Shown: positions 33,157 through 60,357, numbered from the stretch's first letter. The stretch: DNA of 64,000 nucleotides from a bacterium (GCA_025774245.1 JALGWI010000001.1:20599-84598), one strand, 5' to 3'. Numbers and translations: made by a program. Notes: generated by a model not told the origin, from the sequence alone.

Positions 33157-33248
33157 CGGGCACTGCGCCCGGATGGATGGGCCTCGCGCGGGCGAGGCGA
33201 GCGCGGGATAGCGGCCGCGCCCTGGACACCAGACGGAGGAAACGGACG

Positions 33249-45153: not shown

Positions 45154-46509
45154 GTGCCGTACGTTCCGAACACCGACCGCGACCGACGCGCGATGCTCGA
45201 CACGATCGGCGCGGCGTCCGTGGATGAGCTCTTCGCCGACGTTCCGGCCGAGCTCAGAACGTCGGGGGATCTCGACGTTCCGGGCCCCCTCTCGGAGCTC
45301 GAGCTCCTGCGGCACATGCGGAAGCTCGCCTCCGCGAACAGGACGACCGACGACGTCGTGTCGTTCCTGGGCGGGGGCGTCTACGACACCGTCGTGCCGT
45401 CGGCCGTTCGGCACATCACCGGCTTGCCTCACTTCTACACCGCCTACACCCCCTACCAGGCGGAGGCGAGCCAGGGGACGCTCCAGAGCATCTACGAGTT
45501 CCAGTCGCTCATCGCGCGGCTGACGGGCCTCCCCGTCGCGAACGCGTCGATGTACGACGGCGCGTCTGCGGCCGCGGAGGCGTGCGTGGCGGCGCTCGCC
45601 GTCACGAGGAAGAGGAAGATCCTGCTCTCGGCGACGACGAACCCGGCCCTGAGGGCGGTCACGAAGACGTACCTGGGCGCGTCGGGCGCCGAGGTCGTCG
45701 AGCTTCCCTCGCGCGACGGCGTGACTGACGTCGACGTGCTCGGCGACGCCCTCGGGGACGCCGCGGCCGTGGTCGTCCAGCACCCGAACTTCTTCGGGCT
45801 GCTCGAACCGGTCGCCGAGATCGGAGAGCGCGTCTCGGAGTCGAGTGCGCTCCTTGTCTCGTCGGTCGATCCGATCTCCCTCGCGCTCCTGGCACCCCCG
45901 TCCGCGTACGGCGCCGAGATTGCGGTCGGCGAGGGGCAGTGCCTCGGGGCGCCGGTCGCCTTCGGCGGCCCGCTCCTGGGTTTCATGGCGACGACGCGGA
46001 AGCACGTCCGGCGGCTCCCCGGCAGGATCATCGGCGGGGCGACCGACGACGAGGGCCGGCGCGGCTACATCATGACGCTCCAGACGCGCGAGCAGCACAT
46101 CCGTCGTGAGAAGGCCACGTCGAACATCTGCACGAACCAGGGCCTCGTTGCCCTCGGGGCGACGGTCTATCTCTCGCTCCTCGGGAAGGCGGGCTTGAGA
46201 GAGCTGGCCGTCCAGCTCGCCTCGAAGGCGCGCTACGCAGCCGACGCGCTCTCGCACGTGCGGGGCGTCAAGCTCCGCTTCGACGGTCCCTTCTTCCGGG
46301 AGTTCGTGGTCGAGCTTCCGTTCGACGCGGCGCGCACGAAGTGCGAACTCTCGAAGATCGCAATCTGGCCCGGCATCAACTGCGGCTGCTACTACGACGA
46401 CATGAAGAACTGCCTCCTCGTGACCGTCTCCGAACGGCACACGAGGGAGGACATCGATACGCTGGCCTCGGCTCTCGAGGCCATCATCGCTACCGGAGGA
46501 ACGGCGTGA
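45154..46509 (+). CDS. gcvPA: Glycine dehydrogenase (decarboxylating) subunit 1
   Basis: GTG start 2 nt after the gcvH stop. YVPNTDRDRRAMLDTIG...YTPYQAEASQGTLQ is typical of GcvPA. Confidence 0.85.
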   Translation: MPYVPNTDRDRRAMLDTIGAASVDELFADVPAELRTSGDLDVPGPLSELELLRHMRKLASANRTTDDVVSFLGGGVYDTVVPSAVRHITGLPHFYTAYTPYQAEASQGTLQSIYEFQSLIARLTGLPVANASMYDGASAAAEACVAALAVTRKRKILLSATTNPALRAVTKTYLGASGAEVVELPSRDGVTDVDVLGDALGDAAAVVVQHPNFFGLLEPVAEIGERVSESSALLVSSVDPISLALLAPPSAYGAEIAVGEGQCLGAPVAFGGPLLGFMATTRKHVRRLPGRIIGGATDDEGRRGYIMTLQTREQHIRREKATSNICTNQGLVALGATVYLSLLGKAGLRELAVQLASKARYAADALSHVRGVKLRFDGPFFREFVVELPFDAARTKCELSKIAIWPGINCGCYYDDMKNCLLVTVSERHTREDIDTLASALEAIIATGGTA

Positions 46510-48074
46510 GCACGGCGACCGAGAGGGAGAGAGGCGCCGGGAACGGGCGAGGCGCGGGCAGCGGGCGAGGCGCCGGCAACGGGCGGGACGCCGCGGGCCC
46601 GAACGAGAGGGTGCTCGAGCCGACGATCTTCGAGCTCTCCTCGCCGGGCCGGACGGGACATCGCCTGCCGCCGCTCGACGTCCCCGAGATCGACCTTGGG
46701 GCCGCGTTCGGTACCGCGCTCCGCGAGGCTCCCCCCGAGCTTCCCGAGCTCTCCGAGCCCGAGGTCGTCCGGCACTTCACCCGTCTCGCCGAGATGAACC
46801 ACCACGTCGACCGGGCGATCTACCCTCTCGGATCGTGCACGATGAAGTACAACCCGAAGATCAACGAGGACGTGGCGGCGCTGCCCGGCCTCGCCGGCGT
46901 TCACCCCGAGGCCGAGGGGGAGTACGCGCAGGGCTCGATCGCGCTCCTCCACCACCTCGGACGCCTCCTCTGCGAGATCTCGGGCATGGACGCCGTGAGC
47001 CTCCAGCCGCCGGCGGGAGCCTCGGGCGAGCTCGCAGGGATGCTGATCGTCCGCGCCTACCACTCCGATCGCGGCAACCCCAGGAGCAGGGTCATCGTCC
47101 CGGACTCGGCGCACGGCACGAACCCGGCGAGCGTAGCGCTCGCGGGATACGAGGCCATCGAGATCGCCTCCGGCCCCGACGGGCGGATCGACGTCGACGC
47201 CCTGCGGGCCGCCGTCGACGACGAGACCGCGGCCGTCATGATCACGAACCCGAACACGCTCGGCGTCTTCGAGACGAGGATCCACGAGATCGTCGACGTG
47301 GTCCACGCCGCCGGCGGCCTCGTCTACCTCGACGGCGCGAACCTGAACGCGTCGCTCGGGGTCGTTCGGCCGGGCGACGAGGGGTTCGACATCATGCACT
47401 TCAACCTGCACAAGACGTTCTCGGCGCCGCACGGCGGCGGCGGCCCGGGGTCGGGGCCGGTCGGCGTGATGGCGCACCTGGCCCAGTACCTCCCGTATCC
47501 GGTCGCCGCGCGCGACGAGACGAAGGCCGAGGGATACGAGTACTACATGGACTACGACCGGCCGAAGTCGATCGGCAGGGTGCACGCGGCGTACGGCAAC
47601 TTTCTCGTCGCGGTGAAGGCGTACGCGTACATCCTGACGCTCGGGCCGGCGGGGTTGAGGAGGGTCGCGGAGAACGCGGTCCTCAACGCGAACTACCTCC
47701 AGAAGCTCCTCGCGCCGCACTACGACCTCCCGTACGGGGGATACTGCCAGCACGAGTTCGTGCTCTCGGCGTCGAGGCAGAAGGAGGAGAGCGGGGTCAC
47801 GGCGCTCGACATCGCGAAGCGGCTCCTCGACTACGGGCTTCACGCCCCGACGATCTACTTCCCGCTCATCGTGAAGGAAGCGCTCATGATCGAGCCGACC
47901 GAGACGGAGAGCAGGGAGTCGCTCGACCGCTTCGCCGACGTCATGCTCGCGATCGCGCGCGAGAGCCGGGAGAGCCCCGAACTCGTGACCGGCGCGCCGA
48001 CGACGACACCGGTCGGCCGCCTGGACGAGGCGCGGGCGGCCAAGGACCTGGACGTGGCCTGGGAGAACGACTGA
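46506..48074 (+). CDS. gcvPB: Glycine dehydrogenase (decarboxylating) subunit 2 (PLP-binding), with an unusual Gly/Arg-rich N-terminal extension unless the start is at 46611
   Basis: In track ORF 46341..48074. GTG 46506 overlaps the gcvPA stop (GTGA) and has GGAGG 7 nt upstream. An alternative GTG at 46611 would give the canonical MLEPTIFELSSPGR start. PLP-Lys region HFNLHKTFSAPHGGGGPG. Confidence 0.8.
   Translation: MSTATERERGAGNGRGAGSGRGAGNGRDAAGPNERVLEPTIFELSSPGRTGHRLPPLDVPEIDLGAAFGTALREAPPELPELSEPEVVRHFTRLAEMNHHVDRAIYPLGSCTMKYNPKINEDVAALPGLAGVHPEAEGEYAQGSIALLHHLGRLLCEISGMDAVSLQPPAGASGELAGMLIVRAYHSDRGNPRSRVIVPDSAHGTNPASVALAGYEAIEIASGPDGRIDVDALRAAVDDETAAVMITNPNTLGVFETRIHEIVDVVHAAGGLVYLDGANLNASLGVVRPGDEGFDIMHFNLHKTFSAPHGGGGPGSGPVGVMAHLAQYLPYPVAARDETKAEGYEYYMDYDRPKSIGRVHAAYGNFLVAVKAYAYILTLGPAGLRRVAENAVLNANYLQKLLAPHYDLPYGGYCQHEFVLSASRQKEESGVTALDIAKRLLDYGLHAPTIYFPLIVKEALMIEPTETESRESLDRFADVMLAIARESRESPELVTGAPTTTPVGRLDEARAAKDLDVAWEND
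46533..46590 (+). repeat. Three imperfect 18-19-nt tandem repeats (gcgccgg[g/c]aacgggcgag-like) encoding GAGNGR-GAGSGR-GAGNGR at the 5' end of gcvPB
   Basis: Read directly: ggcgccgggaacgggcgag gcgcgggcagcgggcgag gcgccggcaacgggcggga. Confidence 0.55.
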
Positions 48075-48551: not shown

Positions 48552-48867
48552 GGTGATGGACCGCTTCGCCCAGAGGGTCATCGATTGGAGGATGACAGCC
48601 GTCGCGATCATGTTCCTCGAGTCGACGAAACCGTTGTCGTTTCTCGGGAACCAGGCCCTCATTTTCTTTCAGCCGATCGTGCAGTCGATCTTCAACTTCA
48701 AGAGCTACGACGAGGTGGCCGAGATCCTCGAGGACAGGGAGAACATCGAGTATCTGTTGTGCAAGATAGAAGCACTGGAAGCAGAGCGGCGTGATGCCGA
48801 GCGGGACGGGAAGCGGAAGAAGAGGGAAGAAAAGCTCGCCGCGAAGAGACTGAAGGAAGGATCCTGA
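48496..48867 (+). CDS. Small hypothetical membrane protein with a charged coiled C-terminus. The start is uncertain (48496, 48553 or 48556).
   Basis: Track ORF. Hydrophobic core VAIMFLESTKPLSFLGNQALIFFQPIVQSIF, then KIEALEAERRDAERDGKRKKREEKLAAKR. It overlaps the previous gene by 56 nt if 48496 is used. Confidence 0.35.
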   Translation: MWAMRDKGRAEAKRDEHREVMDRFAQRVIDWRMTAVAIMFLESTKPLSFLGNQALIFFQPIVQSIFNFKSYDEVAEILEDRENIEYLLCKIEALEAERRDAERDGKRKKREEKLAAKRLKEGS

Positions 48868-50669
48868 TGAGTGAGAACGGGAAGGTCAAGGCCATCGTCG
48901 CGACGGACTGTGGCAGCACGACGACGAAGGCGATCCTCATCAAGCTTGTCGATGGGGAGTATCGGCTGATCGTCCGGGGCGAGGCTCCGACGACGGTCGA
49001 GTCGCCGTTCGAGGACGTGACGCGAGGCGTGCTGAACGCGATCAGGGAGGTGGAGGAGCTCTCGGGTCACGAGATCCTCGACGGCGAGACGATCATCCAT
49101 CCGAACGACGGCAACCGTGGCGTCGATCTCTATCTCTCGACGTCGAGCGCGGGCGGCGGACTCCAGATGATGGTGGCAGGTGTCGTCATGAGCATGACGG
49201 CCGAGAGCGCCGAGCGCGCCGCCCTCGGCGCCGGCGCGATCGTCATGGACGCGCTGGCCTCGAACGACGGGCGGCTCGCGCACGAGAAGATCGAGCGGAT
49301 CAGGCATCTCCGGCCAGACATGATCCTCCTCTCCGGGGGGATCGACGGCGGGACGATCACGCACGTGGTGGAGCTCGGCCAGGTCATCTCCGCGGCCGAT
49401 CCCAAGCCGCGCCTCGGGATCGGGTACAACCTGCCGATCATCTACGCCGGGAACGTGGAAGCCCGCGGCGAGGTCGAGGCCCTCTTGGGCGACAAGACCG
49501 CGCTGTCCCTCGTGGACAACCTGCGGCCGGTCCTCGAGCGGGAGAACCTCGGTCCCGCGAGGGACATGATCCACGACCTCTTCATGGAACACGTCATGGC
49601 GCAGGCGCCGGGCTACAACAAGCTCATGAGCTGGACCGACGCTCCGATCATGCCGACGCCGGGCGCGGTCGGCTCGATCATCGAGACGATCGCGGACCGG
49701 CAGGGGATCGAGGTCGTCGGCGTCGACATCGGCGGCGCCACGACCGACATCTTCTCGGTCTTCCAGAACACGTTCAACCGGACCGTCTCCGCGAACCTCG
49801 GCATGAGCTACTCGGTATCGAACGTCCTCGCCGAGGCCGGGATCGAGAACGTGATGCGCTGGGTCCCGTTCGAGCTTCCCGAGCTCGGTGTCCGGAACCG
49901 CATCAAGAACAAGATGATCAGGCCGACGACCGTCCCACAGGCGCTCGACGACCTCAAGCTCGAGCAGGCGATCGCGCGCGAGGCGCTGCGGCTCGCGTTC
50001 GAGCAGCACAAGTCGTTCGCCGTCGGTCTCAAAGGCGTCCAGCAGGAGAGGACGATCTCCGACGCGTTCAGCCAGTCGGCGTCGGGCGAGACGCTCGTCG
50101 ACATGATGGACCTCGACCTCCTCGTCGGGTCCGGGGGCGTGCTCTCGCACGCTCCGAGGAGGCAGCAGGCGGCGATGATGCTCATCGACGGCTTCCTCCC
50201 CGAGGGCGTGACGCGGCTCGCGGTCGACTCGATCTTCATGATGCCGCAGCTCGGCGTCCTGGCGGAGGTGCACGAGAAGGCCGCGACCGAGGTCTTCGAG
50301 AAGGACTGTCTCATCCACCTCGGCACGCTCGTGGCGCCGGTGGGAACGACGCAGGAGGGGAAGCCCTGCATCAAGCTCGAGGCCTCGCTTCCCGACGGCA
50401 CGTCGATCGACGAGGACATCCCCTTCGGCGAGATGAGGGTCTACCCGCTGGGTGTGGGGGAGACCGTCGACGTCAAGCTCACACCGGCCCGCGGCTTCGA
50501 CGCCGGCGCCGGCGCCGGGAAGGTCATGGAGGCGACGCTCGCAGGCGGGGTCGTGGGGCTCATGGTCGACGCGCGGGGAAGGCCCTTCGCTCTCCCGGTC
50601 GACGCGAGCCAGCGGGTCGCGAAGCTCAGCAGATGGGCGAAGGCGTTCGACGCCTACCCGGAAACGTAG
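48867..50669 (+). CDS. GlmL/MutL-like (methylaspartate-mutase-accessory-type) ASKHA-fold ATPase protein, 600 aa
   Basis: ATG overlaps the previous stop by 1 nt. Phosphate-1 motif AIVATDCGSTTTKAILI and phosphate-2 motif VVGVDIGGATTDIFSV, as in the GlmL/MutL family. Confidence 0.45.
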   Translation: MSENGKVKAIVATDCGSTTTKAILIKLVDGEYRLIVRGEAPTTVESPFEDVTRGVLNAIREVEELSGHEILDGETIIHPNDGNRGVDLYLSTSSAGGGLQMMVAGVVMSMTAESAERAALGAGAIVMDALASNDGRLAHEKIERIRHLRPDMILLSGGIDGGTITHVVELGQVISAADPKPRLGIGYNLPIIYAGNVEARGEVEALLGDKTALSLVDNLRPVLERENLGPARDMIHDLFMEHVMAQAPGYNKLMSWTDAPIMPTPGAVGSIIETIADRQGIEVVGVDIGGATTDIFSVFQNTFNRTVSANLGMSYSVSNVLAEAGIENVMRWVPFELPELGVRNRIKNKMIRPTTVPQALDDLKLEQAIAREALRLAFEQHKSFAVGLKGVQQERTISDAFSQSASGETLVDMMDLDLLVGSGGVLSHAPRRQQAAMMLIDGFLPEGVTRLAVDSIFMMPQLGVLAEVHEKAATEVFEKDCLIHLGTLVAPVGTTQEGKPCIKLEASLPDGTSIDEDIPFGEMRVYPLGVGETVDVKLTPARGFDAGAGAGKVMEATLAGGVVGLMVDARGRPFALPVDASQRVAKLSRWAKAFDAYPET

Positions 50670-50760: not shown

Positions 50761-51888
50761 ATGGCACACGCATACACACCAGGCCTGAGGGTCGCGGAAC
50801 TGACGGTGCTCAGGAAGGAGCGCCGCCTCCCGATCAAGGGAGATGTTCTCGTCGACGTGGGCGACGCCGTGACCTCGGACACCGTCGTCGCGAGGACACA
50901 CCTCCCGGGGAACGTCCAGCTCGTGAACGTGGCGAGCAAGCTGGGCCTTCCGCCGGAGGACCTGCCGACCGTCATGGTGAAGAAGGAAGGCGACCCGGTC
51001 GAGAAGGGCGAGCCGATCGCCACGACGAAGGGGTTCTTCGGGCTCTTCAAGTCGAACGTCCCGTCGCCGTGCGCGGGCTCGCTCGAGAACATCTCGACGG
51101 TGACCGGACAGGTCATCCTCCGCGAGCCGCCGTCCCCCATCGAGATCGACGCGTACGTCGACGGTCAGGTCGTCGAGGTCTTCGAGGCGGAGGGGGTCGC
51201 GATCGAAACCGTCGGGACGTTCATCCAGGGCATCTTCGGCGTCGGCGGTGAGCGGACCGGCGAGATCAGGGTGGCCGTCGCGAATCCCGGGGAGGTCCTC
51301 GACGCGTCGAAGCTCGACGATTCGATGAAGGGCCAGGTGGTCATCGGCGGCTCGCACGTCACGTGGGACGGGCTCCAGAAGGCGATGAAGATCGGAGCGT
51401 CCGGCGTCGTCGTCGGCGGGTTCGACGACCCCGATCTCAAACGCCTTCTCGGGAAGGACCTGGGCGTCGCGATCACCGGGCAGGAGGACGTCGCGACCAC
51501 GCTCATCCTGACGGAGGGCTTCGGTGAGATGGCCATGGCCCACGGGACGTTCGATCTCCTGAAGAAGCGCGAGGGGCGGAAGGCGTCGATCAACGGCGCG
51601 ACCCAGATTCGCGCGGGCGTCATGAGGCCCGAGATCGTGGTGCCGATCACCGAGGAGCGGGAGAGCGTCCGGGAGGAGGCCGCGAGCGAGGCGACCGGCC
51701 TCGAGATCGGAAGCGCGATCCGCGCTATCCGCGAGCCGTACTTCGGGAGGCTCGGCGAGGTCACCGAGCTTCCGAACGAGCTCCGGAAGATGGAGTCGGA
51801 GTCGATGGTCCGCGTGCTCCAGGTGCGCTTCGAGGACGGCTCGGAGGCGCTCCTGCCGAGGGCCAACGTCGAGATGATCGAGCACTGA
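50761..51888 (+). CDS. Hypothetical protein (375 aa), possibly with a hybrid-barrel N-terminal region. No family recognised.
   Basis: Track ORF with AGGAG 9 nt upstream. Gly- and Val-rich (KGDVLVDVGDAV..., GQVVIGGSHVTWDG, GASGVVVGGFDDPD). Co-directional with and 91 nt downstream of the GlmL-like gene. Confidence 0.4.
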   Translation: MAHAYTPGLRVAELTVLRKERRLPIKGDVLVDVGDAVTSDTVVARTHLPGNVQLVNVASKLGLPPEDLPTVMVKKEGDPVEKGEPIATTKGFFGLFKSNVPSPCAGSLENISTVTGQVILREPPSPIEIDAYVDGQVVEVFEAEGVAIETVGTFIQGIFGVGGERTGEIRVAVANPGEVLDASKLDDSMKGQVVIGGSHVTWDGLQKAMKIGASGVVVGGFDDPDLKRLLGKDLGVAITGQEDVATTLILTEGFGEMAMAHGTFDLLKKREGRKASINGATQIRAGVMRPEIVVPITEERESVREEAASEATGLEIGSAIRAIREPYFGRLGEVTELPNELRKMESESMVRVLQVRFEDGSEALLPRANVEMIEH

Positions 51889-52009: not shown

Positions 52010-52038
52010 TTGACAGGCGCCTGGCCGTCTGGTAACTT
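52010..52038 (+). promoter_or_regulatory. Candidate sigma70-type promoter upstream of the membrane cassette (TTGACA, 17-nt spacer, TAACTT)
   Basis: Read directly: ggcTTGACAggcgcctggccgtctggTAACTTtttt, about 70 nt upstream of the ATG at 52110. Confidence 0.3.
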
Positions 52039-52109
52039 TTTTCCACTTTCCGGACCGTCTCGAGGGGGCAGGCTGCCGCCTGTACACCGGACCGTGAGGG
52101 GAGAGTTGG

Positions 52110-53348
52110 ATGCGGCGTGACAGAGGGCGCTCGATGAGGGCGCGCACACCAGCAGGGTTCGTCGTCGGCGTCTTGTCGATCTCGGCCCTGTTCTTGTGTT
52201 CGGCCGCGCTCGCGCAGGAGGAGATCGAGGCCGCGCCGGCCGACAGCCTCCCGCCTCTCTCGCCCCCGACGTCGGTGATGATCTCGGACACCCCGAACGA
52301 CCGCGGGTTCTCGATCAACGTCACCTGGGCGCTCTCCAGCGACGACGAGGCCGGGAGGGTGACGTCGTACCGGATCTACAGGACGTCGGATCCGGACACC
52401 GGCTTCGCGTTCGCCGGGCGGGTCTCGCCGGGGGACACCGAGTACCGCGACGGCGATGCGCCCGAGGGAGAGCTCGTCTACTACCGCGTCTCCGCTACCG
52501 ACGACGTCGGCGCAGAGTCGCCGTCCGAGACCTCGGCCCCGACTCAGGCCGTACCGCAGTGGTTCAACAAGGAACGCATCAACGTCCTGATCGCCGTGTT
52601 CATCTTCGTCGCGGCGATCGTCTACTTCGTGGTGTCGGCGCGCCGGGGGAAGGACCTCTTCATCAGACGCCTCGCGGGGCTCGACGAGGTCGACAACGCG
52701 GTCGGTCGCGCCACCGAGATGGGCAAGCCGATCCTCTACATCTCGGGCCTCTCGACAGTCTCCGACGTCGCGACGATCGCGGCGATCAACATCCTGGGCG
52801 AGGTCGCGAAGAAGACAGCCGAGTACAACACCCGGCTCATCGTGCCTTGCGCCGACCCCATCGTCATGGCCGTCGAGCAGGAGGTCGTCAAGGAGGCGTA
52901 CGCCAAGGTCGGAAGGCCCGACTCCTACAACGAGGACGACGTCTTCTACCTGACGAGGAGCCAGTTCGCGTACGTCGCGGGCGTGAACGGCATCATGGTG
53001 CGTCAGCGACCCGCGACGATCCTCTACATGGGCATGTTCTTCGCCGAGTCGCTCGTTCTCGCCGAGACCGGCGCCTCGGTCGGAGCGATCCAGATCGCGG
53101 GGACCGACGCCGTGACGCAGCTTCCGTTCTTCATCACGGCGTGCGACTACACGCTGATCGGCGAAGAGCTCTACGCGGCGAGCGCCTACCTCTCTCGCGA
53201 GCCCGTTCTCCTGGGCGGTCTCAAGGGACAGGACACGCTCAAGATGGTGATCGCGATCACCATCATTCTGACGACCATCGTGGCGACGCTCGTCGCGGTG
53301 AACGCGATCGGGGCCGATTTCATGACGCCGCTTCTGATCACGCAGTAG
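52110..53348 (+). CDS. Cassette 1, protein A: signal peptide, Fn3-like ectodomain, TM helix, ~250-aa conserved domain (paralogous to protein C), C-terminal TM helix. Family unknown.
   Basis: GAGGGGAG RBS. VVGVLSISALFLCSAALAQ. Fn3-like INVTWALSSDDEAGRVTSYRIYRT...EYRDGDAPEGELVYYRVSATDDVGAES. TM INVLIAVFIFVAAIVYFVV. Domain RATEMGKPILYISG...LLGGLKG. TM MVIAITIILTTIVATLVAV. Confidence 0.6.
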   Translation: MRRDRGRSMRARTPAGFVVGVLSISALFLCSAALAQEEIEAAPADSLPPLSPPTSVMISDTPNDRGFSINVTWALSSDDEAGRVTSYRIYRTSDPDTGFAFAGRVSPGDTEYRDGDAPEGELVYYRVSATDDVGAESPSETSAPTQAVPQWFNKERINVLIAVFIFVAAIVYFVVSARRGKDLFIRRLAGLDEVDNAVGRATEMGKPILYISGLSTVSDVATIAAINILGEVAKKTAEYNTRLIVPCADPIVMAVEQEVVKEAYAKVGRPDSYNEDDVFYLTRSQFAYVAGVNGIMVRQRPATILYMGMFFAESLVLAETGASVGAIQIAGTDAVTQLPFFITACDYTLIGEELYAASAYLSREPVLLGGLKGQDTLKMVIAITIILTTIVATLVAVNAIGADFMTPLLITQ

Positions 53349-53408
53349 CGGCAGGGGGAGGATCCCGCGCGTCCGCGCGGGCAAGCCGAAGGTCCGAGGG
53401 GTCAGAGG

Positions 53409-54041
53409 ATGTTGCGTCGAAGGCTACCGCTGCTGCTGTGCTTCATCGCCGGTCTCTTCATGGCGGTCCAGTACTACGTCCCCCACCACTCGGTGCAGAG
53501 TGCCTACGAGACGTTGCTGCTCTGGCTCCAGACGCTTCTCGCCTTCGCGTTCCTCCTCGGGACCGTGAGTCTGATCCGGGTCCACTACCACAAGATCAGG
53601 AACAAGGCTGCCGACCGCGGGTTCAGCCTCGTGATGTTTGCGGGGCTCTTCGCCATGCTCGGTCTCGGCTTCTTCCACCCGTCGCACCACGCGCCGGGGT
53701 CGCCGTTCAACCTGATGTTCCTGAACGTCCAGGTGCCGATCGAGGCGACGATGTTCTCGCTCCTGGCGTTCTACGTTGCCTCGGCCGCCTTTCGCGCCTT
53801 CCGCGCGAGGACGCTCGAGGCGACGCTGCTGCTCGTCGCGGCAGCGATCGTGATGCTCGGGCGTGTCCCGATCGGGGAGATGATCTCGAGCACGATCCCC
53901 GAGGCCACCCGCTGGATCCTCGAGGTGCCGAACCTCGCCGCGAAGCGTGGGATCATGATCGGCGTCGGCCTCGGCATGATGGCGACGTCGCTCAAGATCA
54001 TCCTCGGCATCGAGCGCGCGTGGATGGGCGGAGGCGACTAG
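53409..54041 (+). CDS. Cassette 1, protein B: polytopic membrane protein (~5 predicted TM helices). Family unknown.
   Basis: GAGG RBS. Hydrophobic segments LLLCFIAGLFMAV, LLLWLQTLLAFAFLLGTV, FSLVMFAGLFAMLGLGFF, TMFSLLAFYVASAAF, LLLVAAAIVMLG, IMIGVGLGMMATSL. Confidence 0.55.
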   Translation: MLRRRLPLLLCFIAGLFMAVQYYVPHHSVQSAYETLLLWLQTLLAFAFLLGTVSLIRVHYHKIRNKAADRGFSLVMFAGLFAMLGLGFFHPSHHAPGSPFNLMFLNVQVPIEATMFSLLAFYVASAAFRAFRARTLEATLLLVAAAIVMLGRVPIGEMISSTIPEATRWILEVPNLAAKRGIMIGVGLGMMATSLKIILGIERAWMGGGD

Positions 54042-54086
54042 ACGTCGTCTCTACGTGGGCGCGGACGGCCGCGCCCGGAGGCACTG

Positions 54087-54944
54087 ATGGCTTCATCGAT
54101 GACCCGGTTCTTCGAGAGGTTCCTCAAGATCGACAGGCGCTGGATCTTCCTCGCGATTGCCATCGCGGTGGTCATCCCGTTCTTCGCGCCTCTCGGTCTC
54201 CCCGTCGACGTGACGCCACCTGTTCAGCGCCTCTACGACGCGGTCGACGAACTCGAGGCGGGAGGAGCTCCTCTCCTTCTCTCGATCGACTACACGCCGG
54301 CGACGTCTCCCGAGCTCGAGCCGATGTCGACGGCAATCCTGCGCCACGTGTTCGAGAAGGGCGTCCGGGTCATCGTGATGACGCTTCACCCGGCCGGCTA
54401 CGGCATGGCCGAGAGCGCGATCCTCAGGGCGGCGGAGGAGGCGGGGGCCGAGTACGGCGAGGACCTCGTGTACCTCGGCTTCCAGCCGGGCACGTCCGCG
54501 GTGATCCTGGGCCTCGGCGTCAACATCACGAACGTCTTCCCCGAGGACGCATACGGGACGCCGCTCTCAGAGATTCCCCTGATGGAGGGGATCCGGAACT
54601 ACGACGACATCCCTCTCCTCATCTCGCTGGCCGGGTGGTCGGCGTCGGAGGCGTGGGTCTACTTTGCGCACCAGCCCTACGGACAGAGGGTCGGCGGCGG
54701 TGTGACGGCGGTCATGGCAACCGATCTCTACCCGTACCTCGATTCGGGCCAGCTCGTTGGTCTTCTGGGCGGGATGCGTGGTGCGGCGGAGTACGAGGTG
54801 CTCATCGGGCGGCCCGGCTCCGGAGCACGGGGCATGGACTCGCAATCGGTGATTCACCTGATCATCATTCTTTTGATCGTGCTTGGGAACGTCGCCTATT
54901 TCGCGACGAGAAGGCAGCGGAAGCTGGCGGGAGAAGGAACCTAG
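54087..54944 (+). CDS. Cassette 1, protein C: N-terminal TM helix, ~230-aa domain homologous to the C-terminal domain of protein A, C-terminal TM helix. Family unknown.
   Basis: GGAGG RBS. WIFLAIAIAVVIPFFAPLG ... LLGGMRGAAEYEVL ... VIHLIIILLIVLGNVAYFATRRQRK. Confidence 0.55.
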   Translation: MASSMTRFFERFLKIDRRWIFLAIAIAVVIPFFAPLGLPVDVTPPVQRLYDAVDELEAGGAPLLLSIDYTPATSPELEPMSTAILRHVFEKGVRVIVMTLHPAGYGMAESAILRAAEEAGAEYGEDLVYLGFQPGTSAVILGLGVNITNVFPEDAYGTPLSEIPLMEGIRNYDDIPLLISLAGWSASEAWVYFAHQPYGQRVGGGVTAVMATDLYPYLDSGQLVGLLGGMRGAAEYEVLIGRPGSGARGMDSQSVIHLIIILLIVLGNVAYFATRRQRKLAGEGT

Positions 54945-55005
54945 ACTCGGGACCCCGGGGCCTCTGGACCCGGGTGCCCGCGGGCCTGACCTCGCGGAGG
55001 CAGAC

Positions 55006-55869
55006 ATGGAGTTCTCCACCCTCATCTGGACGACTATCGGGGTCATCCTGACGCTCTGCGTCTACAGCTTCCTGTACAAGGACAACCCGTTCTACAAGTT
55101 CGCCGAACACCTGGTCGTCGGCGCGTCGGCCGGCTACTACCTCGTCATCTACTACTACAACTTCATCGACCCGAACGTCGTGCGTCCGGTCTTCCAGCTC
55201 GAGCACGGTGGCCAGGCCATCGCGCTCGGCGGCTTCGAGTGGTGGATGGCGCTCATCCCCGGTCTCCTCGGCCTCCTTCTCTACGCGCGGTTCTTCCCCA
55301 AGATCGCGTGGGTAGGACGCTGGCCGCTCGGCATCTACGTCGGCGGTTACGCCGGTCTCGGCATCTCGCCGGTGATGCAGGCGCGCGTCATCGATCAGAT
55401 GCGGGCCGCTTCGTCGCCCCTGGCCTCGATCGTCGGGCCGGGCGAGGTGGTCGATCCGTTCGCCGCGGTGACGAACACCGCACTCGGCTTCGTCATCTTC
55501 GCCGTGATGACCTATTTCCTCCTCGCGAAGCGGCACCTCGGCTCCAGGGGAATCGCCGCGATGATCGGGGTGATCGCCGCCTCGGCCGTCGTCGGCTACG
55601 GTGGCTATGTGGTGCTGACGGCGTTGTCGGCTGCGAACGTCGTGTCGACGACGAGCATCCTCCTGGTCGTCGGGCTCCTCGGTACCCTCGCGTACTTCTT
55701 CTTCTCTCTGAGGCACACGGGCCTCCTGGGCGGGCTCGCCCGGATCGGCATCGTGTTCCTCATGGTGGGATTCGGCGCCTCATTCGGCTACACGGTCATG
55801 TCGAGAATCTCGCTCCTGATCGGCAGGGTGGGTTTCCTCATCGACTGGATCGGGATGTTCTCCTCGTAG
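55006..55869 (+). CDS. Cassette 1, protein D: polytopic membrane protein (~7 predicted TM helices). Family unknown.
   Basis: In track ORF 54883..55869. ATG 55006 with GGAGG 5 nt upstream. LIWTTIGVILTLCVYSFLYKDNPFYKF...GFGASFGYTVMSRISLLIGR. Confidence 0.55.
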   Translation: MEFSTLIWTTIGVILTLCVYSFLYKDNPFYKFAEHLVVGASAGYYLVIYYYNFIDPNVVRPVFQLEHGGQAIALGGFEWWMALIPGLLGLLLYARFFPKIAWVGRWPLGIYVGGYAGLGISPVMQARVIDQMRAASSPLASIVGPGEVVDPFAAVTNTALGFVIFAVMTYFLLAKRHLGSRGIAAMIGVIAASAVVGYGGYVVLTALSAANVVSTTSILLVVGLLGTLAYFFFSLRHTGLLGGLARIGIVFLMVGFGASFGYTVMSRISLLIGRVGFLIDWIGMFSS

Positions 55870-55949
55870 GCCGGTGGACCTGATGGACAGACCGCCGCCC
55901 GCGGGGCGGCCGAGGGGAGCGAAGAACGCCCCCTCTTTTCTCGTCACGG

Positions 55950-57182
55950 ATGCGCGGTTCGATGATGAGAGCATCTCTTGCAGTTCTCTCCATACTCGTG
56001 CTCTCCCTCACGTTCGGCTGGGCGTGGGCCCAGGACGAACTCGTGCTTGAGGGCGTTGAGCCCGCGTTGTCCGACACCCTTCCGCCAGATCTGATCCCGC
56101 CAGCGCCTGCCGCCGGCCTCACTGCCGTCGACTACGTCGACAACAACGACTCCGGAAACAAGATCGACCTCTCCTGGACGACCTCGCCGGACGACGGCGA
56201 CGGAGCGGCCGACGTCACCGGCTACCAGGTCTGGAGGTCGGAGACGGCCGCCGGGCCGGGAGACACGCTCGCGTTCGTCGCGGCGGGGCAGGCCGGCTAT
56301 CTCGACGAGACCGCTGAGCCCGGCACGCCCTACTACTACAGCGTCACCGCCTTCGACGGCACGAACCACTCCGACGCCGTCTCCTTCGGCCCCGTCGCGG
56401 GCGCCCGCAACTGGTTCACCGCCACGCGCGCCGCCGTCCTCGTGCTCGTGTCGGTCTTCTTCGGCCTGGTCCTCGTCTTCACGCAGCTCGCGGAGCGGGG
56501 CGCCAAGCTCTTCGTGCGCCGCATTCCCGGCCTGAACGCGATCGAGGAGGCCGTCGGACGCGCCACCGAGATGGGCAGGCCGGTCCTCTACGTTCCCGGC
56601 ATCGGCGAGATCGACAACATCATGACGATCGCGTCTCTGACGATCCTCTCGCACGTGGCGAAGATCACGGCGCGCTACGAGACGCCGCTCATCGTCCCCA
56701 CCGCGCGGGCGGTCGTTATGTCGGCGGCCGAGGAGGTCGTCAAGGAGGCCTACGCGGAAGTGGGGAAGCCGGACGCGTACAACCGCGACAACATCCGGTA
56801 CCTCTCGGACGCGCAGTTCGCCTTCGCCGGGGCCGTGAACGGCATCATGCTCAGGGAGAAGCCGGCAGCGAACCTGTATCTCGGCGCGTTCTGGGCCGAG
56901 TCGCTCCTCCTGGCGGAGACCGGATTCGAGGCCGGGGCGATCCAGGTCGCCGGGACCGCGATGGTCTCGCAGCTCCCGTTCTTCGTGACGGCGTGCGACT
57001 ACACACTCCTCGGAGAGGAGCTCTACGCCGCGAGCGCGTACCTCTCGCGCGAGCCCAAGCTCCTCGGCGGGCTCAAGGGCTCCGACTGGATGAAGGTCGT
57101 CACGATCGTCCTCATCGCGGCCGGCATCATCATGAACCTCGTGGGCGCGGACGCGTTCGTCGAGTGGTTCCACACGAGCTAG
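55950..57182 (+). CDS. Cassette 2, protein A' (paralog of 52110..53348): signal peptide, Fn3-like ectodomain, TM, conserved domain, C-terminal TM
   Basis: SLAVLSILVLSLTFGWAWAQ. IDLSWTTSPDDGDGAADVTGYQVWRSE...PYYYSVTAFDGTNHSD. RATEMGRPVLYVPG...LPFFVTACDYTLLGEELYAASAYLSREPKLLGGLKG. Confidence 0.6.
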   Translation: MRGSMMRASLAVLSILVLSLTFGWAWAQDELVLEGVEPALSDTLPPDLIPPAPAAGLTAVDYVDNNDSGNKIDLSWTTSPDDGDGAADVTGYQVWRSETAAGPGDTLAFVAAGQAGYLDETAEPGTPYYYSVTAFDGTNHSDAVSFGPVAGARNWFTATRAAVLVLVSVFFGLVLVFTQLAERGAKLFVRRIPGLNAIEEAVGRATEMGRPVLYVPGIGEIDNIMTIASLTILSHVAKITARYETPLIVPTARAVVMSAAEEVVKEAYAEVGKPDAYNRDNIRYLSDAQFAFAGAVNGIMLREKPAANLYLGAFWAESLLLAETGFEAGAIQVAGTAMVSQLPFFVTACDYTLLGEELYAASAYLSREPKLLGGLKGSDWMKVVTIVLIAAGIIMNLVGADAFVEWFHTS

Positions 57183-57194
57183 CGGAGTGACCCT

Positions 57195-57869
57195 GTGAGA
57201 AGAGAGATCCCGATAGCGATCACGTTTCTGATCGGCATCTTCATGATCGTCGACTTCTTCGTCCCGCACACGGCCGTGACCACGGCCGCGGACGAGATCA
57301 AGCAGTGGGGGATCATCGTGATCGCCGCCTCGATCCTGCTCGGGATCGGGAACCTCGTCAGGGTCCACTCGAAGAACATCGCCAGGAAGAACAGAGGGTG
57401 GGGCTACAGCATCATCACGCTCGCGGTCATGGCGGTGATGCTCTTCCTCGGCCTGTGGCCCGGAGCGCACCTGGGCCCGAACGAGGCGATCGGGACCGTG
57501 TCGGAGGGAACGCCCTTCAACTGGATGTTCATTCACATGCAGGTGCCGCTCCAGAGCACGATGTTCTCGCTCCTGGCCTTCTTCATCGCGTCGGCCGCGT
57601 ATCGCGCGTTTCGCCTGCGCTCCGCGGAGTCGAGTCTCCTGCTCATTGCCGCGATCATCGTCATGCTCGGTCGCGTTCCCCTTGGGGCGTACCTCACGAG
57701 GAACCTGCCGGAGCACGCGCAGCTCCCGTGGATCACGGAGACGATCATGGCCTATCCGAACATGGCGGCGTTTCGGGGGATCCTCATGGGCGCCGCGCTC
57801 GGCGTGATGGCGATGGGTCTTCGTATCATCCTCGGGATCGAGCGATCGTATCTGGGCGGAGAGAAATAG
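57195..57869 (+). CDS. Cassette 2, protein B' (paralog of 53409..54041)
   Basis: GTG start. TMFSLLAFFIASAAYRAFR ... LRIILGIERSYLGG versus B TMFSLLAFYVASAAFRAFR ... LKIILGIERAWMGG. Confidence 0.55.
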   Translation: MRREIPIAITFLIGIFMIVDFFVPHTAVTTAADEIKQWGIIVIAASILLGIGNLVRVHSKNIARKNRGWGYSIITLAVMAVMLFLGLWPGAHLGPNEAIGTVSEGTPFNWMFIHMQVPLQSTMFSLLAFFIASAAYRAFRLRSAESSLLLIAAIIVMLGRVPLGAYLTRNLPEHAQLPWITETIMAYPNMAAFRGILMGAALGVMAMGLRIILGIERSYLGGEK

Positions 57870-57885
57870 GGGGGAAGCGGAGCGG

Positions 57886-58740
57886 ATGGCGAAGGGATTC
57901 GACATACGGAGCATCGACCGCAGGATCATCTTCGTGCTGATCTTCGTGGCGGTCGCGATCCCGCTCATCAAGCCCCTCGGGCTCCCGGTCGGTGTCTCGC
58001 CGCCCGTCCAGTCGCTCTACGACGCCGTCGACGCGCTGCCGCCGGGGACGATCGTCATGCTGGGTGGCGACTACAGCCCCGACACGGTTGCCGAACTCCA
58101 GCCGATGGCGATCGCGTTCCTGCGCCACGCCTTCAGGAACGACCTTCGGGTCGTGATCACGTGCCTCTGGCCGGCCTCGCCGCCGCTCGTCGAGGCCGCG
58201 CTGGCGCCGCTCGTGGATGAGTTCGACAAGGAGTACGGGGTCGACTACGTGAACCTGGGGTACATGACCGGCGGTCCCGTGACGATCCTGGGCATGGGCA
58301 ACAGCATCCCGGGCACGTTCCCTCGGGACTACTACGGCACGCCGGTCGCAGAGATCCCACTCATGCGGGAGGTCGACAACCTCGACGACATCGAGCTCGT
58401 GATGGAGGTGTCTGCCGGCACCCCGGGCACGCGGGAGTGGGTGCAGCAGGCCGTGAGCAGGTTCAGCGTCACCCTCGGGGCCGGCACGACGGCCGTCGGC
58501 GCGCCGAATTTCTATCCGTACATATCGAGCGGGCAGCTGGTCGGGCTCCTCGGAGGACTCAAGGGCGCCGCCGAGTACGAGATCCTCGTGGGTGCCCCGG
58601 CGGACGCGGTGAAGGGCATGGACGCCCAGTCGATCGTGCACGCTCTCATCGTCTTCTTCATCCTGTTCGGGAACGTGGTCTACTTCGTGAGCGGGCGTCC
58701 TTCGGCAGGCTCGCTGACGGCATCGAGGGGTGAGCGATGA
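57886..58740 (+). CDS. Cassette 2, protein C' (paralog of 54087..54944)
   Basis: GGAGCGG RBS. IIFVLIFVAVAIPLIKPLGLPV ... LVGLLGGLKGAAEYEILVG ... IVHALIVFFILFGNVVYF. Confidence 0.55.
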   Translation: MAKGFDIRSIDRRIIFVLIFVAVAIPLIKPLGLPVGVSPPVQSLYDAVDALPPGTIVMLGGDYSPDTVAELQPMAIAFLRHAFRNDLRVVITCLWPASPPLVEAALAPLVDEFDKEYGVDYVNLGYMTGGPVTILGMGNSIPGTFPRDYYGTPVAEIPLMREVDNLDDIELVMEVSAGTPGTREWVQQAVSRFSVTLGAGTTAVGAPNFYPYISSGQLVGLLGGLKGAAEYEILVGAPADAVKGMDAQSIVHALIVFFILFGNVVYFVSGRPSAGSLTASRGER

Positions 58741-59423
58741 GCAGCTGGGTGGAGCAGTTCTTCGGTGGCGGGGCCGGGACGTCGGCGGCGATGTTCTGGG
58801 GCACGTGGGTCGCCGCGCTCCTCACGCTCTGCATCTACAGCTTTCTGTACAGGGACAACCCGCTCTACAAGTTCGCGGAGAGCCTCTTCGTCGGGATCGG
58901 CGCCGCGTACTGGCTCGCGATCCTCTACCACAACACCCTCAAGCCGAAGCTCTTCGTCGCGCTCTTTCCGGGTGACTCGGGCGAGCCGGTCCTCTGGTAC
59001 CGCATTTTCCCGGGCATCCTCGCGGTCTTCATGCTCCTCAGGTTCTACCCGAAGATCTCCTGGCTCTCGCGCTGGTCCCTCGCGTTCATCGTGGGGATGT
59101 ACGCGGCCGTCAACCTGACGGGATTCGCGCAGGCGGACTTCGTCGAGCAGATCTACGCGACGATGAGGACCCCGCTGGTCGGCGGGGGAGCCCTCTTGTT
59201 CATCCTGAACCTGTCCGCGATCATCGGCGTCGTCTCGGTTCTGATCTACTTCTTCTTCTCGAAAGAGCACAAGGGCCCCATCGGCGCCGTGGCCAAGGTC
59301 GGGATCTGGTTCCTCATGGTGGCCTTCGGGGCGTCTTTTGGATACACGGTGATGGGGCGCGTCTCCCTCCTGATCGGGAGAATGACGTTCCTCCTCAGGG
59401 ACTGGCTGCACGTTATCGACTAG
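58737..59423 (+). CDS. Cassette 2, protein D' (paralog of 55006..55869, shorter)
   Basis: ATG overlaps the C' stop (ATGA). LTLCIYSFLYRDNPLYKFAESL ... AFGASFGYTVMGRVSLLIGR. Confidence 0.55.
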   Translation: MSSWVEQFFGGGAGTSAAMFWGTWVAALLTLCIYSFLYRDNPLYKFAESLFVGIGAAYWLAILYHNTLKPKLFVALFPGDSGEPVLWYRIFPGILAVFMLLRFYPKISWLSRWSLAFIVGMYAAVNLTGFAQADFVEQIYATMRTPLVGGGALLFILNLSAIIGVVSVLIYFFFSKEHKGPIGAVAKVGIWFLMVAFGASFGYTVMGRVSLLIGRMTFLLRDWLHVID

Positions 59424-59550: not shown

Positions 59551-60357
59551 GTGACATCCTGGCGCTTCCTCGACACGGGGGCGCGCGACGGCGCGACCAA
59601 CATGGCGATCGACGAGGCGCTCCTCCTGGGAGTCCAGCGGGGGAGCTCTCGGCCGACGGTGCGCGTCTACGCGTGGGACCCGCCGACGGTGTCGACCGGC
59701 CACTCGCAGCGCGCGGAGGACGAGCTCGACCTTGCGGCCTGCGGGCGGGCGGGCGTCGGGGTCGTGCGGCGGCCGACCGGCGGACGCGCGGTGCTGCACG
59801 CCGGCGAGCTTACCTACTCGGTGACGGGCCCCTCGTGTGTCCCGCCGCTCGGGGGGACCATCATGGAGTCGTACCGCGCCGTGGCGCTCGGGCTGATCGC
59901 GGCCCTCCGGTCCTTAGGCGTCGACGCCGAGTTCGAGCGCGTGGCCACGGAGGCGCGGGGGAGGGAGGGCGGCGCGAGCCCGCCGTGCTTCGTGAGCGCC
60001 GGCCGCTTCGAGATCGTGGTCGGCGGGCGCAAGCTCGTGGGGAGCGCGCAGAGACGCGCCGAGGGAGCAGTGCTGCAACACGGCTCGCTCCTCCTCGACG
60101 GCACGCACGCCGGGCTCGCCGACCTCGTGCACGCGCGCAACGAGCGGGAGCGAGCCGTGTTACGGCGCTCCCTCGAATCGAAGACGACCGACCTCTCGAC
60201 CATCCTGGGTCGCGGCGTCGCGTTCGACGAGATCGCTCCGGCGATCAGGGGCGGATTCGGGGAAGCGTGGGGCATCGAACTGGCTGAGGGGCCGCTCACC
60301 GAACCCGAGATGGAGGAGGCCCAGCACCTTGCAACTGGCTATGAGCTGGTCGCTTAG
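59551..60357 (+). CDS. Lipoate-protein ligase / octanoyltransferase family protein (BPL/LPL catalytic domain)
   Basis: GTG start. WRFLDTGARDGATNMAIDEALL, RRPTGGRAVLH, and the substrate-binding Lys region in ...GRKLVGSAQRR. Confidence 0.6.
   Translation: MTSWRFLDTGARDGATNMAIDEALLLGVQRGSSRPTVRVYAWDPPTVSTGHSQRAEDELDLAACGRAGVGVVRRPTGGRAVLHAGELTYSVTGPSCVPPLGGTIMESYRAVALGLIAALRSLGVDAEFERVATEARGREGGASPPCFVSAGRFEIVVGGRKLVGSAQRRAEGAVLQHGSLLLDGTHAGLADLVHARNERERAVLRRSLESKTTDLSTILGRGVAFDEIAPAIRGGFGEAWGIELAEGPLTEPEMEEAQHLATGYELVA

Follow-up and report, generated by a model that had tools for sequence, protein, structure and literature searches.

Several multi-subunit machines of the bacterial inner membrane, including LptB2FGC, MlaFEDB, FtsEX and LolCDE, act on envelope components and not on solutes, and their compact operons encode, besides polytopic subunits, a cytoplasmic module that supplies the input and a bitopic protein whose domain lies in the periplasm. 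Here we describe a four-gene cassette, A-B-C-D, which occurs twice in tandem (A-B-C-D, then A'-B'-C'-D') at positions 52,110 to 59,423 of a 64,000-nucleotide (nt) stretch of bacterial DNA (GCA_025774245.1 JALGWI010000001.1:20599-84598), hereafter the window. Like these ATP-binding cassette (ABC) mechanotransmission complexes, it is compact and is predicted to have polytopic subunits, a periplasmic-domain subunit and a cytoplasmic input module. Unlike them, it has no ABC ATPase, its cytoplasmic domain belongs to a membrane subunit, and the only nucleoside triphosphatase linked to it, in part of the loci, is an actin-fold protein. No characterised system accommodates the cassette by the tests applied here.

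Other described systems also invite comparison. TolQRA-Pal, ExbBD-TonB and GldLM pair an inner-membrane complex with a periplasm-spanning arm, as is predicted for the cassette, and one and the same gene pair, G and N, is found before ABCD arrays in some lineages and before Tol-Pal operons in others. However, the cassette has no sequence or profile relationship to these systems, no conserved transmembrane (TM) aspartate and four distinct subunits where they have two or three, and in its A protein the arm is N-terminal and the conserved domain faces the cytoplasm. The RNF and Na+-NQR complexes (RnfA/E, RnfG, RnfC/NqrA) likewise have two polytopic subunits of ~200–230 amino acids (aa) and a bitopic subunit with a ~200-aa periplasmic domain, and N has a weak RnfC_N-type barrel signal, but B, C and D are without invariant cysteines or a flavinylation motif, and Fe-S and NADH-binding domains are absent. 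G itself is a full-length match to the GlmL/MutL family (PF13941) with intact ASKHA motifs, yet it differs from the family's known members in scoring far below the equivalog cut-offs, in a C-terminal extension of ~120 aa and in having no B12-dependent mutase gene beside it. The genes concerned, and the parts of protein A, are as follows (window positions):

48867–50669, plus strand: G, 600 aa, GlmL/MutL-family actin-fold (ASKHA) ATPase
50761–51888, plus strand: N, 375 aa, soluble protein directly upstream of A
52110–53348, plus strand: A (cassette 1), 412 aa
about residues 1–35 of A: signal peptide
52257–52559, plus strand: Fn3 ectodomain of A (about residues 50–150)
52569–52643, plus strand: first TM helix of A (residues 154–178)
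52554–53297, plus strand: DUF6754 of A (residues 149–396)
after DUF6754: C-terminal TM helix of A
53409–54041, plus strand: B (cassette 1), 210 aa, polytopic, ~6 TM helices
54087–54944, plus strand: C (cassette 1), 285 aa
55006–55869, plus strand: D (cassette 1), 287 aa, polytopic
55950–57182, plus strand: A' (cassette 2), 410 aa, signal peptide, Fn3, TM, DUF6754, TM
57195–57869, plus strand: B' (cassette 2), 224 aa, GTG start
57886–58740, plus strand: C' (cassette 2), 284 aa
58737–59423, plus strand: D' (cassette 2), 228 aa, polytopic, 7–8 predicted helices

An earlier note on this DNA had proposed the two cassettes, and all eight of its plus-strand open reading frames (ORFs) were found in the sequence with the positions and lengths it gave. 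Public gene calls on the same DNA agree exactly in the lengths of B, C, D, B', C' and D'; they make A eight codons shorter (404 aa) and start A' elsewhere, and D has an alternative TTG start at 54883. The ATGA overlap between C' and D' can be read directly in the sequence, the stop of C' overlapping the start of D'. The intergenic gaps are of 60 nt or less, as had been said, except for those from C to D (61 nt) and from D to A' (80 nt).

The tandem arrangement had also been taken for an ancient duplication, not a product of assembly, with paralogs some 50–60% identical. This estimate was too high: BLASTP identities are 47% for A/A', 45% for B/B', 49% for C/C' and 35% for D/D', i.e., 35–49%. 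At the DNA level, the cassettes share patches of 65–77% identity with a repeat period of ~3.8 kb. Protein identity this low and DNA identity this patchy bear out the proposal, and we therefore regard the duplication as old and not as an artefact. D also carries ~60 hydrophobic residues that D' lacks, equivalent to roughly two additional TM helices; it is longer than most of its family, and comparably long variants occur in the related loci L027, L035, L061 and L062.

If the four proteins work together, as the earlier note supposed, their genes should be kept together in other genomes, and they are. With the four families located by hidden Markov model (HMM) in the window and in 85 related loci, A-B-C-D on one strand proved to be the order in 85/85 related loci, which span at least eight named phyla and have only an occasional extra match to A, C or D. 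Arrays hold one cassette in about 50 loci, two in about 21 and three in about 14, some of the one-cassette loci being cut by contig ends. Inside a cassette, the genes are separated by medians of 7, 8 and 4 nt, with overlaps at about one-third of B-C and C-D junctions; the median gap between cassettes is 85 nt.

The genes also diverge together. Across 92 complete cassettes, the pairwise divergences of A, B, C and D are correlated, with r of 0.81–0.88 overall and 0.88–0.96 for paralogous cassettes inside one array, so cassettes duplicate and diverge as units. Invariant gene order, translational coupling and co-divergence together give strong but indirect support to an obligate complex of A, B, C and D, and the four proteins very probably form one hetero-oligomeric assembly in the inner membrane. 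No gene fusions between the subunits were found. The copies of A in one WOR-3 array (L040) are 70–81% identical over DUF6754, and over the same domain the A of the window is 63–64% identical to copies in other phyla vs 54% to its own neighbour A'; judged by such identities, the duplications are repeated and of different ages. Positional orthology of the cassette copies was considered and set aside, there being no clean pattern.

The families are large. At 90% identity, A has more than 8000 homolog clusters, the closest annotated ones from Candidatus Eisenbacteria, which is thus the likely phylum of origin of the window, and D' has at least ~7900. When one genome of each GTDB species was scanned, there were at least 593 matching stretches, and those listed come from Eisenbacteria, WOR-3, Zixibacteria, Stahlbacteria, Cloacimonadota, Edwardsbacteria, Ignavibacteria and Poribacteria. 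Protein matches extend the range to TA06, Coatesbacteria, Latescibacteria and others, giving ten or more host phyla, mostly uncultured, which dominate in sediments, groundwater, soils, sponges and digesters. None of the named matches is a cultured host; all are metagenome-assembled genomes. The genes flanking the arrays vary by phylum and are mostly housekeeping genes, e.g., aroK/aroB in Poribacteria and a MazG-like gene in WOR-3, and also pyruvate phosphate dikinase and recA. Searches of 2.9 million viral contigs and 72,556 plasmids found no relatives of the cassette, and PADLOC recognised no known anti-phage defence system in it; by this evidence, it is neither mobile nor a defence system.

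Of the four proteins, only A belongs to a catalogued family. The earlier note had recognised no family for any of them, which holds for B, C and D but not for A: with a PF20539 cut-off of 27 bits, A matches DUF6754 (PF20539) at E 4.5e-121 and 403.3 bits over profile positions 3–250 of 257, and A' matches it at E 7.6e-116 and 386.2 bits, together with a weak fn3 match. Both are full-length members of the Pfam entry, including its associated Fn3 domain; the entry covers the A domain only and assigns no function. The layout read by eye (signal peptide, Fn3, TM helix, domain, TM helix) was right. Family-averaged hydropathy and the distribution of lysine and arginine place the Fn3 domain outside and the ~200-aa domain inside, between a first TM helix that leads into a strongly basic segment and the C-terminal one. 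A comparison of 38 diverse sequences shows 44 invariant residues in A, and almost all of these are in DUF6754 (including R186, R200, E203, E313, E319, Q328, T332, D346, E352 and E353), and the domain keeps ~50% identity or more across phyla. By this measure, DUF6754 is the most conserved part of the system, and it is predicted to be cytoplasmic.

The periplasmic part of A is far more variable. A profile search of 1.84 billion representatives (50% identity level) returned 1933 proteins at E <= 1e-30, a count that takes in some giant Fn3-only proteins. In the best 150 matches, DUF6754 is present in 138 and always C-terminal, the region before it ranges from 66 to 1074 aa, and a single family-type Fn3 domain beside the membrane is kept in ~90%. 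This membrane-proximal domain, whose identity as Fn3 was confirmed and which AlphaFold2 models confidently, has an invariant D-x-P-N-D-x-G...W signature (D60, D64, G66, W73), and its acidic residues may form a metal- or ligand-binding site. The same signature is repeated in proteins with long ectodomains (P0292, P0306, P0330). In long forms of A, the arm is extended by extra Fn3 domains, by HEAT repeats or by a BamB-like propeller, although in 54 of 60 such forms the added sequence has no Pfam match, and Pfam found no catalytic domain in the arms of these 60. For example, a 1341-aa HEAT-repeat form has a lipoprotein-type signal peptide and still has B, C and D downstream. AlphaFold2 gave A a predicted template modelling score (pTM) of 0.43, with the TM helices confident in addition to Fn3, and sequence and profile searches of the PDB with A found only Fn3, DUF6754 having no match.

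B and D are polytopic and C is bitopic. B has ~6 hydrophobic segments by family-averaged hydropathy, one more than the ~5 TM helices counted in the earlier note, and a conserved motif ...ATMFxLLAFxxASAAxRAFRAR...; D has the conserved motif FGASFGYTVM. Averaged over its family, D has ~5–6 TM helices, and the copy in the first cassette has roughly two more. Small-residue and aromatic motifs characterise both proteins, which have almost no invariant buried charges and in which no internal repeats were found. C has the layout that had been described for it (TM helix, domain, TM helix): its N-terminus is predicted to be inside and a ~216-aa domain outside, and the C-terminal TM helix would lead to a basic tail inside. 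The sequence pattern suggests an alpha/beta character for the C domain.

No match to B, C or D was found in Pfam, NCBIfam or, for the first cassette, PADLOC, and a Pfam scan at E <= 1 of 41 B, 48 C and 41 D members gave no recurring family. Profile searches of the PDB with the three proteins found nothing, and a structural search with the AlphaFold2 model of D', itself weak (mean predicted local distance difference test score (pLDDT) 70.8, pTM 0.36), gave no PDB match. A claim that the proteins have no known fold is weakened by the limited confidence of both AlphaFold models (pTM 0.43 and 0.36). No paralogy was detected between A and C, between B and D, between isolated soluble domains or between N and the domains of A and C, and by these comparisons A to D are four mutually unrelated integral-membrane proteins. 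The sole profile-profile signal between subunits joins the first TM helix of A (52569–52643) to the last of C (54840–54925; hhalign E 0.017), both of which read ...(V/A)YF...RR..K on entering the cytoplasm. The signal is probably compositional, although it could reflect equivalent packing sites of the two helices.

Known systems were considered in turn. When the window proteins were scanned with Pfam and NCBIfam, only DUF6754, a weak Fn3 and MutL matched among the cassette, G and N, and these scans together with family-wide ones agree with the earlier report that signatures of Walker motifs, ABC proteins, the major facilitator superfamily, resistance-nodulation-division pumps, ExbB/ExbD, MotA/B and the type IX secretion system (T9SS) are absent. 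ABC_tran matched none of A-D, G and N, nor did any other P-loop family. Among 41 B and 41 D proteins, there were only scattered sub-threshold matches, e.g., to ABC2_membrane_3 (2/41) and FtsX (1/41), and with neither an ATPase nor a permease family signal we rejected membership of the ABC transporters, including ABC-2, FtsX/MacB, MlaE and LptF/G. A TolQ/TolR-type stator was rejected because hhalign gave probabilities of 0.4% or less for B and D vs TolQ and for C vs TolR, using TolQ and TolR profiles built from related loci for which the positive control reached 100%. We likewise rejected RNF/Na+-NQR (no Rnf-Nqr, FMN_bind or NQRA match, and no invariant cysteine in B, C or D) and the T9SS/gliding core of GldKLMN and PorKLMN (no match for the eight proteins or in the family-wide scans). 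HMM and PDB searches thus placed B, C and D in no known transporter, stator or accessory family. The searchable literature holds no mention of DUF6754 or PF13941 and no description of a comparable system; none of its papers reports B, C and D as partners of A, their fixed arrangement in a four-gene cassette, the tandem amplification or the linkage to G-N. Co-conservation and the failure of family matches together support the suggestion, made in the earlier note, of an undescribed four-subunit membrane complex of the envelope.

The two genes directly upstream of the array in the window give some indication of how the complex might be driven. G matches PF13941 over its full length (E 2.6e-126, 422 bits), and 14 sequences share its phosphate motifs DCGSTTTK and DIGGATTD without change. 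A role as GlmL, the methylaspartate-mutase accessory protein, was rejected: G falls below the NCBIfam equivalog cut-offs (GlmL 225 vs 475, Or-4 218 vs 600, TIGR01319 163 vs 204), and B12-dependent mutase genes are absent from the inspected loci, the window included. Its extension beyond the MutL domain ends in a motif (residues 569–600), RGRPFxLP...RVxKLxxWxxALxxYP, which is conserved in about 65 sequences and looks like an amphipathic docking or membrane-targeting helix. N is 55% identical across phyla and has a sub-threshold RnfC_N/biotin-lipoyl-like barrel signal (E 0.0023; 18.4 bits vs 25.6). PDB searches with N and G found no match.

The earlier note was correct that a GlmL-like gene is present but took it for a mere neighbour, and it is instead recurrently linked to the cassette, with N, across phyla. 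Counting the window, G is adjacent to the array in 16/86 and N in 15/86 A-centred loci, and the pair lies beside arrays in Eisenbacteria, Zixibacteria and Ignavibacteria, at times on the opposite strand. A metagenome search with an N profile gave 80 loci. In 55 of them the sequence reaches far enough upstream, and G immediately precedes N in 39 of these; an ABCD array adjoins N in 32/66 informative N-centred loci, starting within 600 nt downstream of N in 23 of those 32 (median gap 33 nt). G is a probable accessory module of the cassette.

Where G-N occurs without an array, it is followed either by a complete TolQ-TolR-TolA-like-TolB-Pal-CpoB cluster or by a weakly PorV-like gene and then accA, surroundings that point to the envelope. 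The first arrangement, with G-N directly upstream of the operon, is seen in L101, L108, L135, L142, L143 and L155, the operon encoding TolQ, TolR, a TonB_2-type TolA-like protein, TolB, an OmpA-type Pal and a TPR-containing CpoB. N has no recognisable G upstream in L118, L126, L127, L128, L138, L149 and L162. In six of these seven loci, N is followed within ~4 nt by the gene for a 294-aa putative PorV-like protein (E 0.0023) and then by accA, and in L127 the putative PorV-like gene lies further downstream; a DUF4388 gene comes after accA in L118, L149 and L162.

Our leading interpretation, which we hold tentatively, is that the cassette encodes an envelope-directed transducer or transporter that is coupled to G in some lineages. 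B and D, with ~6 TM helices each, would form the membrane core. A and C would each be stapled into the membrane by two TM helices bracketing a ~200-aa globular domain: DUF6754, probably functionally central, on the cytoplasmic face, and the C domain on the periplasmic face. A would also project a signal-peptide-exported, Fn3-based arm into the periplasm, its length and composition varying by lineage. An event at the cytoplasmic DUF6754 face would be coupled through the B/D core to the C domain and the A arm, and the object moved, passed on or retained would be an envelope component, not a small solute. In the many lineages with G and N immediately before the cassette, as in the window, G could give ATP-driven input or regulation via N and DUF6754. 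By analogy, the logic resembles that of LptB2FGC, MlaFEDB and FtsEX but without an ABC ATPase. Because single-cassette loci are common, tandem cassettes would be functional variants and not obligate partners, i.e., independent versions of one machine differing in cargo or partner.

A bolder form of this proposal, which we think unlikely, is that ABCD and G-N together represent a new class of envelope machine that is driven or gated by an actin-fold (ASKHA) ATPase, and not by an ABC or AAA+ ATPase or an ion-motive force. In Eisenbacteria, Zixibacteria, Ignavibacteria and related phyla, such a machine might do a job parallel to that of Tol-Pal (outer-membrane tethering, constriction or cargo hand-over), with tandem paralogs supplying different periplasmic arms.

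Several observations weigh against the transducer interpretation. G-N linkage is seen in only ~20–50% of loci, depending on the anchor gene of the survey, and arrays in WOR-3 and Poribacteria are flanked by housekeeping genes and not by G-N. The pair also lies beside glycine-cleavage genes without an array, so the association is not exclusive, and G-N may be optional for the cassette or unrelated to it. The topology of the cassette is predicted from the positive-inside rule only, and the choice of envelope cargo over solute is drawn from the scaffold-type ectodomains. The structural models are of limited confidence: pTM is 0.43 for A and 0.36 for D', and the most conserved stretch of A (residues 290–348) is modelled by AlphaFold2 at pLDDT below 50.

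A second possibility, which we consider doubtful, is a solute transporter of several subunits, secondary-active or of unknown coupling. B and D would make a 12-TM core, C a tethered binding domain and A a regulatory or gating subunit, tandem copies would differ in substrate, and G-N would be unrelated metabolic neighbours. Two ~6-TM subunits with a tethered periplasmic domain do recall the layouts of tripartite ATP-independent periplasmic (TRAP) transporters, tripartite tricarboxylate transporters and ABC importers, and repeated amplification in tandem, accompanied by divergence, is what paralogous transporters typically show. The neighbours include genes of amino-acid catabolism (gcvPA/gcvPB and lplA in the window; DAO-type and Fer2_BFD oxidoreductases in L001 and L004), about half of the arrays have no G-N nearby, and a cationic substrate could find binding sites among the numerous invariant acidic residues of the A and C domains. 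However, no transporter family is matched, neither internal repeats nor a mutual relationship, both common in transporter cores, were detected in B and D, and a TM anchor at either end sets C apart from mobile binding proteins. It is also unusual for a solute transporter to have ectodomains as long as about 1070 aa built from Fn3, HEAT or propeller units, and no riboswitch or other Rfam family was found in the window.

It is quite unlikely that the cassette is instead an ion-driven energiser like TolQRA, ExbBD-TonB or GldLM, in which a B/D ion core would transmit motion via the A arm and C to the outer envelope. The hosts are diderm, an arm of ~70 to 1070 aa would suit an element that reaches across the periplasm, and the position of G-N upstream of either ABCD or a complete Tol-Pal operon suggests analogous roles. 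Against this stand the hhalign probabilities below 1% (control 100%), the lack of any MotA_ExbB or ExbD Pfam signal in ~130 family members scanned, and the absence from the TM helices of C and A of an invariant Asp or Glu, a TM Asp being the hallmark of MotB, ExbD and TolR; moreover, the most conserved part is cytoplasmic and not in the membrane. Very unlikely, in our judgement, is a membrane-bound enzyme complex that makes or modifies an envelope lipid or polymer by a logic like that of BcsA-BcsB and other synthase-dependent systems, with DUF6754 catalytic, B/D as the translocation path and C and the Fn3 arm handling the product in the periplasm. The conservation of DUF6754 is enzyme-like (at least 50% identity across phyla, with D, E, R, Q, T and G residues invariant at dozens of positions), the small-residue and aromatic motifs and few buried charges of B and D would fit, and Fn3 domains are common in polysaccharide-handling proteins. 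But no glycosyltransferase, acyltransferase or other catalytic signal appears at any threshold, sugar-nucleotide or lipid-synthesis genes do not recur beside the arrays, and the AlphaFold2 model does not resolve the DUF6754 fold. The idea that there is no functional unit at all, only inherited synteny or spurious ORFs, draws on the 65–69% GC content of the DNA, from which many long spurious ORFs are expected. It is effectively refuted by ORF families with thousands of homologs under clear purifying selection, by a gene order that stays constant across at least eight phyla while flanking genes change, by start/stop overlaps and correlated divergence, and by the agreement of public gene calls.

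The surroundings of the array in the window are as follows; the earlier note had named the GlmL-like gene, the lipoate ligase and a TonB-dependent-receptor-like gene as flanks, and all three are present.

16336–20196: fusion oxidoreductase, 1286 aa, with Fer2_4, Fer4_20, Pyr_redox_2, Nqo3-type Fer4 and Molybdopterin domains
33177–38156: giant T9SS-cargo-like surface protein, 1659 aa, with Chlamydia-PMP repeats, DUF1565, DUF5123 and a C-terminal FlgD_ig
45154–46509: gcvPA, glycine-cleavage P-protein gene
46341–48074: gcvPB, glycine-cleavage P-protein gene
59551–60357: lplA, lipoate-protein ligase

Two giant T9SS-type surface proteins had been reported, of which we could confirm only the one at 33177–38156; the ORF at 16336–20196, a fusion oxidoreductase, is not a surface protein of this type. 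The block of G, N and the two cassettes sits between gcvPA/gcvPB and lplA. A gcvP gene is also found upstream of array-free G-N in the metagenome loci L115, L117, L129 and L153, and a DAO-type oxidoreductase gene flanks G-N in L101, L108, L135 and L143 and ABCD arrays in L001 and L004, a recurring tie of G-N or the array to glycine and amino-acid catabolism. The promoter proposed at 52010 was rejected: its TTGACA is perfect, but the -10 element (TAACTT), 17 nt downstream, is poor. In this spacer between N and A (52010–52040), the TTGACA site overlaps a hairpin and T-run that score as terminator-like, and promoter and terminator-like sites occur in the scan at chance level.

B, C and D are absent from the family databases, and none of the four subunits has been studied; the domain of A was already catalogued as DUF6754, although uncharacterised. 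Being so widespread and so constrained, the cassette probably has a core task in the envelope or in transport. If the link to an actin-fold ATPase holds, the envelope machines of bacteria would be seen to use a further, new principle of energy coupling. Should the cassette prove to be simply a novel family of transporters, tens of thousands of proteins now called hypothetical in uncultured lineages would still gain an annotation, and the cassette could be used as a marker operon for phyla related to the FCB (Fibrobacterota-Chlorobiota-Bacteroidota) group.

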